Notes under the pieces: model-generated
Told to the model about the DNA's origin: nothing
What the model saw: only the letters and a program-made list of their open reading frames with translations
Database searches by the model: none
Position numbers and translations under genes: made by a program
NCBI RefSeq assembly: GCF_053078305.1
Contig: NZ_CP166879.1
Length of the DNA: 64,000 nt
Reading direction: 5' to 3' (one strand)
Part shown: positions 2,920 to 5,206 of the stretch, piece by piece
How positions within the stretch are numbered: position 1 is the stretch's first letter
Layout of the letters: every line of letters begins with the position of its first letter

Positions 2920-3072
2920 CGCTTATTCTCAGGGCGGGGCGAAATTCCCCACCGGCGGTAAATCAACTCAGTTGAAAGCCCGCGAGCGCTTTGGGTGCGA
3001 ACTCAAAGGACAGCAGATCCGGTGTAATTCCGGGGCCGACGGTTAGAGTCCGGATGGGAGAGAGTAACGATT
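2920..3072 (+). promoter_or_regulatory. FMN riboswitch (RFN element) in the ribB leader
   Basis: Conserved RFN blocks visible: agggcggggcgaaattccccaccggcggtaaa ... cccgcgagcgc ... ggacagcagatccggtgtaattccggggccgacggttagagtccggatgggagag, about 100 nt upstream of the ribB ATG. Confidence 0.85.
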
Positions 3073-3174: not shown

Positions 3175-3828
3175 ATGAATCAGACGCTACTTTCCTCTTT
3201 TGGTACGCCTTTCGAACGTGTTGAAAATGCACTGGCTGCGCTGCGTGAAGGACGCGGTGTAATGGTGCTTGATGATGAAGACCGTGAAAACGAAGGTGAT
3301 ATGATCTTCCCGGCAGAAACCATGACTGTTGAGCAGATGGCGCTGACCATTCGCCACGGTAGCGGTATTGTTTGCCTGTGCATTACTGAAGATCGCCGTA
3401 AACAACTCGATCTGCCAATGATGGTAGAAAATAACACCAGCGCCTATGGCACCGGTTTTACCGTGACCATTGAAGCGGCTGAAGGTGTGACTACCGGTGT
3501 TTCTGCCGCTGACCGTATTACGACCGTTCGCGCAGCGATTGCCGATGGCGCAAAACCTTCTGATCTGAATCGCCCGGGCCACGTTTTCCCACTTCGCGCG
3601 CAGGCAGGTGGAGTACTGACGCGTGGCGGTCATACTGAAGCGACTATTGATCTGATGACGCTGGCAGGCTTTAAACCGGCTGGTGTGCTGTGTGAGCTGA
3701 CTAATGACGATGGCACGATGGCGCGTGCACCAGAGTGTATTGAGTTTGCCAATAAACACAACATGGCGCTCGTGACTATTGAAGACCTGGTGGCATACCG
3801 TCAGGCACATGAGCGTAAAGCCAGCTGA
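3175..3828 (+). CDS. ribB: 3,4-dihydroxy-2-butanone 4-phosphate synthase
   Basis: 217 aa from ATG at 3175 ([48 protein letters not shown]...); the ORF-track upstream extension from 3082 overlaps the riboswitch and is rejected. Confidence 0.95.
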
Positions 3829-3859
3829 AAACCGCTGCTTAATTTACTGCCTTAATCAA

Positions 3860-3896
3860 GAAACCGAAGTTGTAGCAGGCTTCGGTTTTTATTTTT
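3860..3896 (+). terminator. Intrinsic terminator after ribB
   Basis: Hairpin aaccgaag-N10-cttcggtt followed by a T-rich run (tttttattttt). Confidence 0.6.
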
Positions 3897-4089
3897 CCCT
3901 GCTATGCAAGATGTTAATTCCGCTTCTCTTTCTATGAGAAAATTTCATTAATATCAGGCATTCTTTTTCATTATGATCAAAATCATATAATTGTTCCGTT
4001 ATTATGCGACCATATGAATATATCCGAAAAAGGATATGTGAAATTTATGCGCTAAATGTTTAGTATTGTTAAATATTAAGGGTAAAAGG

Positions 4090-4260
4090 ATGTTTATCGC
4101 CTGGTACTGGATTGTATTGATTGTTCTGGTTGTGGTGGGTTATTTCCTGCATTTGAAACGTTATTGTCGGGCATTTCGCCAGGACAGAGACGCACTGCTT
4201 GAAGCGCGGAACAAATACTTAAACAGTACGAGAGAAGAGACAGCCGAAAAGGTAGAATAA
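4090..4260 (+). CDS. Hypothetical small membrane protein (56 aa from ATG; ORF track starts at TTG 4066)
   Basis: MFIAWYWIVLIVLVVVGYFLHLKRY... has one clear TM helix then a charged tail; AAGGG about 10 nt upstream of the ATG. No homolog recognised. Confidence 0.4.
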   Translation: MFIAWYWIVLIVLVVVGYFLHLKRYCRAFRQDRDALLEARNKYLNSTREETAEKVE

Positions 4261-4278
4261 GGCTTTAGTGAAACTAGC

Positions 4279-4307
4279 AGAAGTTGTCCATGCGCTGGAC
4301 AACTTCT
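4279..4307. terminator. 12-bp stem hairpin between the convergent small ORF and zupT (possible terminator)
   Basis: agaagttgtcca-tgcgc-tggacaacttct perfect inverted repeat; only a weak T tract on either strand. Confidence 0.4.
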
Positions 4308-4317
4308 GATGTTGCTT

Positions 4318-5091
4318 TTAACCAATTCCCGCCGTTTGTAGCAGCACTAAACTGAATCCCATCACTGACATTCCACATAGTACGCCATAGCTGGGGTTAT
4401 TATTAGGGTCAATCTCTTTGGCGAGCGGCATTAATTCATCAACCGAGAGCGCCACCATAATTCCTGCAACCGCCGCCATGATTGCCGCCATGACCACGGG
4501 GGAAATCATGCTACCGAGGATTAACCACGCCAGCACACCACCAAGAATTTCTGCCAATCCAGAAATCCCCGCCCACAGAATTGCCGTGCGTTTAGAACCC
4601 GTTGCTGCATAAACCGGGCCTGCAACCGCCAGACCTTCAGGAATATTGTGCAACGCGACGGCCAGTGCGATGCCAAATCCCAGCTCCAGGTTGCTGCTTG
4701 CCGTGACAAAGGTGGCAATCCCTTCCGGGAAGTTATGCAGACTGATGCCGAGAGTGAGCAGAATGGCTGTGCGCTTGATCGATTTTGGCAACGGCTGCAC
4801 CGATTTTTGCATTAAATCCTGCGGATGCGCATGTGGCAACATGCGGTCCAGGCCAAAATAGCCAAGCAGACCGAAGATAAACATTCCATAACCCAACACA
4901 GGCGACATTCCTTCAGCTGCTAGTGCGGCAGGAAGCATTTCCATTAATGAGATGAGCAACATGATCCCCGCCGCAAATCCTAGCGAAAACGCCAGTAAGC
5001 GGTTCGAGGGTTTTTGCCCGAGAACGCCGAGAAACGCGCCAATAAACGTGGCTGCCCCCGCCAGTATGGTCAGAATGAGAGGTACTGACAT
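4318..5091 (-). CDS. zupT: ZIP-family zinc transporter ZupT
   Basis: ORF track 4318..5133; recognised 257 aa protein starts [22 protein letters not shown]..., polytopic membrane protein with His-rich ZIP motifs (HNFPEG, HNIPEG). Confidence 0.9.
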
Positions 5092-5206
5092 CGACAACTC
5101 CTTATAAATCTTCACCTTCAGGCAGATCGTCAAAATAACTGATGATCATCATCATTGTTATCCGGGTTCTTACTCCGCCGAACAAGCGTATTGTGAGGAT
5201 ATCAAA

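Follow-up and report, generated by a model that had tools for sequence, protein, structure and literature searches.

The small open reading frame between ribB and zupT is yqiD, a conserved enterobacterial gene for a predicted single-pass inner-membrane protein

The open reading frame of 56 codons found between ribB and zupT in the analysed window (the whole stretch of 64,000 nucleotides from contig NZ_CP166879.1) is yqiD, a gene that is already known and annotated. The original prediction had called it unassigned, a label that is out of date, as yqiD has borne its name since 2018, has the locus tag b4756 in E. coli K-12, and is represented both by a UniProt entry and in the RefSeq annotation. 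The features of the locus are as follows.

3175-3828, plus strand: ribB, the upstream neighbour of yqiD in the window
3859-3897, plus strand: intrinsic terminator of ribB (13-bp stem, then a U-run; terminator scan), which sets ribB apart from yqiD
3948-3977, plus strand: candidate promoter, the only sigma-70-like match upstream of yqiD (9/12; promoter scan)
3972-3987, no strand assigned: inverted repeat TATGAT-CAAA-ATCATA, with the core ATGAT-N4-ATCAT at 3973-3986, about 110 nt upstream of yqiD
3988-4089, plus strand: conserved leader, from the palindrome to the start codon, containing the Shine-Dalgarno sequence AAGGG at 4078-4082
4090-4260, plus strand: yqiD coding sequence, 56 codons and a stop, ATG start; 'protein YqiD' in RefSeq at exactly these coordinates
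4093-4149, plus strand: predicted transmembrane helix, residues 2-20, FIAWYWIVLIVLVVVGYFL, Kyte-Doolittle mean 2.55
4150-4215, plus strand: basic membrane-adjacent helix, residues 21-42, with the motif KRYCRAFRQDRDALLEAR, charge +7/-3
4216-4257, plus strand: variable charged tail, residues 43-56, charge +2/-4, pLDDT 53-68
4278-4308, no strand assigned: hairpin terminator common to the convergent genes yqiD (plus) and zupT (minus), 13-bp stem (terminator scan)
4318-5091, minus strand: zupT, the convergent downstream neighbour of yqiD in the window

Identity of the gene and its published record

A megablast search with positions 3830-4330 matched 4,432 of the 5,426 complete E. coli genomes. Among the matches listed, all but one overlie the annotation 'yqiD: protein YqiD', and the exception is a weak match that belongs to the second allele class described below. 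In an identical record, NZ_CP019359.1, the annotated coding sequence corresponds exactly to 4090-4260 of the window. The YqiD protein of the window is equal in length to that of K-12 and identical to it in 55 of 56 residues; the sole difference is A12V, with the window carrying the common V12 allele. The order of the locus (ribB and yqiD in the same direction, zupT facing them) is also that of K-12, with no substantive difference in the window. The exact protein encoded here is named 'protein YqiD' / DUF4051 at NCBI, and the K-12 form is the UniProt entry YQID_ECOLI. The family was formerly listed in Pfam as DUF4051; the copy of Pfam that we searched returned this model for none of 26 family members, including those named DUF4051 by NCBI or UniRef, and the model is apparently absent from it.

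The original prediction had proposed an independent gene for a small membrane protein, citing an open reading frame that begins with a strongly hydrophobic helix and ends in a charged tail, together with a plausible ribosome-binding site and terminator hairpins on both sides. Each of these elements was checked and all are present, and the core of the proposal was right, having been proven earlier by an SPA tag and tetracycline ribosome profiling. VanOrsdel and co-workers (2018; PMC6001520) list yqiD as a gene for 56 aa between zupT and ribB; they tagged the chromosomal open reading frame with SPA and detected the protein by immunoblot in K-12, where YqiD was also positive in the tetracycline ribosome-profiling screen, and grouped it with proteins that for the most part reach high levels in rich medium. 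Thus the C-terminal epitope tagging and ribosome profiling that had been put forward as checks were already in the literature, both with a positive outcome.

For E. coli yqiD, our literature search turned up no data on a phenotype, an interaction or a regulon. Other matches to the name that were read or assessed by title and abstract concern the unrelated yqiD (ispA) of B. subtilis or are a misprint for YqjD. In EAEC 042, a 'DUF4051 family' gene, orf3334, is up in an aar mutant, where it is one of only three genes (with aggR and aap) up among the 23 tested (PMC5570504). Judging from the family name, orf3334 is presumably a homologue of yqiD, and its behaviour hints at AggR- or H-NS-linked control in EAEC 042.

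Conservation and predicted architecture of YqiD

Protein searches place the family in Escherichia, Citrobacter, Salmonella and Enterobacter, often under the label DUF4051. A species scan with one genome per species yielded 29 loci and added Intestinirhabdus, as well as Phytobacter and Kosakonia at about 40% identity. The yqiD frame is intact in all 31 orthologous loci (from Escherichia, Citrobacter, Salmonella, Intestinirhabdus, Phytobacter and Kosakonia), every one of which uses the same ATG, and the protein length ranges from 56 to 70 aa; none of the other five frames is open in more than two of the 31. Pairwise comparison of codons 1-42 gives dN/dS values of 0.03-0.14, with dS that exceeds 1.2 and is saturated between genera, and third positions are variable in 37 of 42 codons, compared with 13 of 42 for second positions. 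The last 14-16 codons give a different picture: dN/dS between genera is about 0.5-1.1, and in codons 43-56 the three codon positions vary equally (16/15/16); the tail evolves almost neutrally. Codon comparison shows strong purifying selection on YqiD that predates the split of Escherichia, Salmonella, Citrobacter, Phytobacter and Kosakonia, and we infer that the targets are the transmembrane helix and the adjoining basic helix, not the tail. Conservation of the frame and dN/dS had been named in advance as the tests on which the prediction of a gene could fail, and both strongly favour it.

The same comparisons bear on the start codon. A longer version in the list of open reading frames begins at TTG 4066 and would encode 64 aa. 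An in-frame start at -24 (TTG or ATG) is present in 20 of the 31 loci and missing in the other 11 as a result of an indel frameshift or a stop codon, whereas the ATG at 4090 is universal; because of this absence the TTG start was rejected and 4090 taken as the true one.

They also dispose of the idea that the reading frame arose by chance, or encodes a cis-acting leader peptide, and that what is conserved is in fact an RNA or DNA element. Conservation of the leader does lend itself to such an explanation: mean column identity is 82% in 23 sequences over 3966-4100 (a span that includes the palindrome and the first codons). Against it stand the codon-position pattern, a dN/dS far below 1, the 31 intact frames out of 31, a terminator that directly follows yqiD with no downstream gene on the same strand, and the detection of the protein itself (PMC6001520). 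We regard this explanation as already refuted, with virtually no chance of being correct.

The family is narrow, as an exhaustive profile search of 1.84 billion representative proteins returned only 22 clusters (50% identity). All Pfam matches fell below threshold (DUF2621, with 20.5 bits against 27.7 required, DUF4381 and ResB), as did the NCBIfam match NF038143 (18 bits against 50). We dismissed these homologies as composition-like, of the sort typical of any transmembrane helix followed by a charged helix. A profile search of the PDB with YqiD recovered no chain, even at E = 10.

The predicted transmembrane helix bears an aromatic belt, W5-Y6-W7, at its N-terminal end. Only one residue precedes the hydrophobic stretch, and seven Lys/Arg residues lie within positions 21-42, so that the positive-inside rule predicts an N-out/C-in orientation; YqiD is most likely a single-pass inner-membrane protein of this topology, in which the N-terminus would hardly extend into the periplasm and everything after residue 20 would be cytoplasmic. 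The AlphaFold2 model is a single continuous helix of moderate confidence (mean pLDDT 72, pTM 0.35), with pLDDT of 85-87 across the hydrophobic part. M1, W5, R24, C26, A28, R30, D32, R33, D34 and A35 are invariant, and in alignment A1 at least 90% of the sequences keep I3, Y6, W7, G17 and Y18. The motif CRAFRQDRDA is near-invariant and persists in homologues of about 40% identity. It falls in the amphipathic segment (residues 21-40, hydrophobic moment 0.4-0.55). Residues 21-42, predicted to be cytoplasmic, are presumed to form the functional surface.

Transcription unit, neighbourhood and alleles

The ribB terminator hairpin at 3859-3890 has a folding energy of -16 kcal/mol (z = -3.9 for the RNA fold relative to shuffled sequence). 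For the hairpin at 4278-4308 the plus strand folds at -21.7 kcal/mol and the minus strand at -21.1 (z about -4.1), and its stem carries compensatory pair changes between Escherichia lineages. The non-coding region upstream of yqiD drives a GFP reporter, the output of which is altered by natural variants (bioRxiv 10.1101/2025.06.10.658842). This activity, together with a terminator on each side, shows that yqiD is a transcription unit of its own. As a separate observation, the region comprising the ribB stop codon and terminator (3827-3897) weakly matches the Salmonella sRNA STnc240 (29 bits, with a gathering threshold of 55), which could be a 3'UTR-derived sRNA or chance. Farther upstream, ribB is preceded by an FMN riboswitch (RF00050, 120.9 bits, 2921-3069), which is known and annotated in RefSeq.

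The candidate promoter of yqiD consists of a -35 element TTAATA (3948-3953), an 18-nt spacer and a -10 element TATGAT (3972-3977). The -10 hexamer is near-invariant across genera and the -35 region is not alignable; the assignment is uncertain, and transcription might also start closer to the ATG. The -10 hexamer is overlapped by the 3972-3987 palindrome, whose arms show no variation among 23 sequences from four genera and at which the alignable sequence starts exactly; in 64 kb one would expect the pattern 0.2 times. Its TGA-N6-TCA core resembles sites of the CRP/FNR family. The FNR consensus is TTGAT-N4-ATCAA, with which ATGAT-CAAA-ATCAT agrees in four of five positions per arm, and the mismatch is symmetric and falls at the position by which FNR and CRP sites are told apart. 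The palindrome looks like a candidate operator for a dimeric regulator. Between it and the gene, the AAGGG at 4078-4082 lies 7 nt before the yqiD ATG and is conserved across genera. RNA structure was not detected in the leader by RNAalifold (-2.6 kcal/mol, zero compensatory pairs); for a candidate hairpin spotted by eye at 4020-4037 pairing amounts to 73% and some double changes occur, while a slid control reaches 67%.

A second ATGAT-N4-ATCAT occurs at 5142-5155, where the dyad conserved across species is TGAYGA-TCW-TCRTCA (6+3+6). An operator common to yqiD and zupT/ygiD was considered and rejected, since the geometries differ (6+4+6 for yqiD versus 6+3+6). The zupT-ygiD intergenic palindrome itself (5140-5154, TGATGA-TCA-TCATCA) is kept in Intestinirhabdus via a compensatory change in both arms (TGACGA-TCT-TCGTCA). 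In more distant genera (L029, L036, L038 and L041) a Fur-box-like sequence, GATAATGATTATC, adjoins the zupT start in its place; the window contains none.

Analysis of the neighbourhood reveals that zupT is convergent with yqiD in 29 of 29 species loci, with ribB at most 3 kb upstream in 16 of the 29. This arrangement invites the proposal, implied by the remark in the original prediction that such small membrane proteins often regulate transporters, that YqiD is a dedicated modulator of its neighbour, the metal permease ZupT; it would bind ZupT in the membrane and tune the uptake of Zn, Fe, Co and Mn, perhaps with metal sensing by His21 and Cys26 at the cytoplasmic face of the membrane. The two genes lie tail-to-tail and have one terminator hairpin in common, both in the 29 species loci without exception and in homologues farther away, and Escherichia, Citrobacter and Salmonella keep His21 and Cys26, the latter two genera adding Cys20. 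However, collinearity extends to the entire glnE-hldE-ubiK-ribB-yqiD-zupT-ygiD block across the range of the family, and therefore the adjacency of yqiD and zupT says little; the genes are convergent and not co-transcribed; and zupT is reported to be constitutive and devoid of regulator sites, in contrast to yqiD with its conserved operator-like palindrome. Moreover, family members P0115, P0119 and P0120 adjoin assT-dsbL-dsbI, the ribB-zupT gap in L041 and L042 is only about 64 bp with no yqiD in between, and neither Cys26 nor His21 is conserved in remote family members, for example P0117 and P0120. The sole apparent ZupT::YqiD fusion (P0118, 125 aa; L035 1499-1876), in which ZupT residues 1-70 are joined to YqiD from residue 13 to its end, was rejected as a real fusion: because the zupT 3' end lies on the opposite strand just downstream, we consider it a fold-back assembly chimera on a 2-kb Logan contig. 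A role of YqiD as a ZupT regulator is not supported beyond adjacency, and we judge it distinctly unlikely.

The family members beside assT-dsbL-dsbI (P0115, P0119, P0120 and P0170) form a second, rare YqiD-like lineage of 12 clusters, located on the metagenome contigs L037, L039, L040, L041 and L042. They share with YqiD the transmembrane helix and the core R-A-x-R-x-[DE]-R-[DE]-A-L, resemble it in the sequence of the leader and ribosome-binding site, and differ from it in a C-terminal signature LLxVIRRWRE and in their placement between assT and ygiC or beside dsbL. The assT-side gene is absent from the window. In E. coli strains that carry assT we found only a decayed remnant of it, e.g. in the assT-ygiC gap of Ecol_745, where MYVFIY followed by a stop precedes ...RDCPAYRG (L033 12751-12850).

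Within E. coli, 5,425 of the 5,426 complete genomes carry one of two yqiD allele classes. The window-type haplotype (4,432 genomes) has the order ribB-yqiD-zupT; in the second (989 genomes), a four-gene chaperone-usher fimbrial operon separates ribB from a divergent yqiD allele, which RefSeq labels 'hypothetical protein' and not YqiD. The proteins of the two classes are about 66-70% identical, with dS of about 1.6. The flanking genes are far more alike (ribB 98.5% and zupT 98.4% identical) than yqiD codons 1-42 (78.7%), the tail (58.7%) or the spacer that includes the terminator (59.7%). E. albertii and E. whittamii possess the fimbrial operon together with an A-like yqiD allele, hence linkage to the operon alone fails to explain the divergent one. 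Three second-haplotype strains, Z1323CEC0015, Ecol_745 and 1403KP (L002, L032, L033 and L034; equivalent of window 3830-4317), all have assT-dsbL-dsbI beyond ygiD. One further allele, P0011 (NCBI, on a 4.78-Mb contig), looks recombinant, as it combines a B-type N-terminal half, LLAGGYFLHLKRYCKAFRH, with an A-type tail, EARNKYLNSTREETAEKVE.

Possible function of YqiD

AcrZ, MgtS, MgrB, CydX and KdpF are characterised small proteins of the E. coli inner membrane, and they act by binding larger membrane proteins and modulating them. By analogy with them, we lean towards a mode of action, somewhat probable in our estimation, in which YqiD docks on a larger membrane protein and modulates it. YqiD would have no activity of its own and would attach to a larger protein or complex of the inner membrane, the contact being made by the transmembrane helix and by the invariant R-x-D-R-D face just beneath the membrane, and binding would alter the activity or stability of the partner. 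Expression of yqiD probably begins at, or slightly downstream of, the invariant palindrome.

With one predicted transmembrane helix, a length within about 60 aa and no domain match above threshold, YqiD is comparable to the five proteins in size class, single transmembrane helix and lack of an enzymatic domain. AcrZ has an N-out/C-in orientation with a cytoplasmic helical extension, both of which are shared with YqiD as predicted here. None of the five exhibits sequence similarity to YqiD, and while cydX and kdpF reside in operons with their partners, yqiD has no candidate partner in an operon. The cytoplasmic segment of YqiD is also longer than theirs, and it is conserved far more than the YqiD tail. 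The concentration of constraint in the transmembrane and basic helices, and not in the tail, suggests a docking surface rather than a generic lipid anchor, which favours the modulator mode.

That basic helix also speaks for action on the membrane itself rather than on one protein partner, in which an amphipathic helix would lie on anionic lipids and YqiD would change the properties of the membrane around it or act as a general stress factor. Residues 21-40 are amphipathic, a charge of +7 comes straight after the transmembrane helix, and the operon structure points to no partner. Such action nevertheless appears unlikely, given that the near-absolute conservation of individual side chains (the acidic D32 and D34, as well as A28 and A35) exceeds what lipid binding needs and that the family is confined to 22 clusters among 1.84 billion representatives.

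Small size, a hydrophobic N-terminal helix and an AT-rich intergenic setting are also features of type I toxin-like peptides, which damage the membrane and are silenced by antisense RNA. We consider it highly improbable that YqiD belongs among them, as no Rfam family overlaps yqiD and no antisense sRNA family was found, the long conserved hydrophilic domain is unlike anything in Ibs, Ldr, Hok or TisB, and the gene is single-copy with a fixed chromosomal position across genera. Toxins of this class are repressed in normal growth, whereas YqiD is grouped with proteins most of which are abundant in rich medium (PMC6001520).

The yqiD gene is no new discovery, having been found, named and validated in 2018 and included in current annotation. 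Anyone seeking a function for YqiD can start from the map of conserved residues, the candidate operator or the differences between the two alleles. A further proposal, to which we assign a low probability, is FNR/CRP-type control of yqiD through the palindrome, with YqiD tuning a membrane protein involved in metal or envelope-redox processes (ZupT, or DsbI in the case of the paralogues). If true, YqiD would be a condition-specific switch for that partner, and the diverged alleles of E. coli would reflect selection on its interaction.
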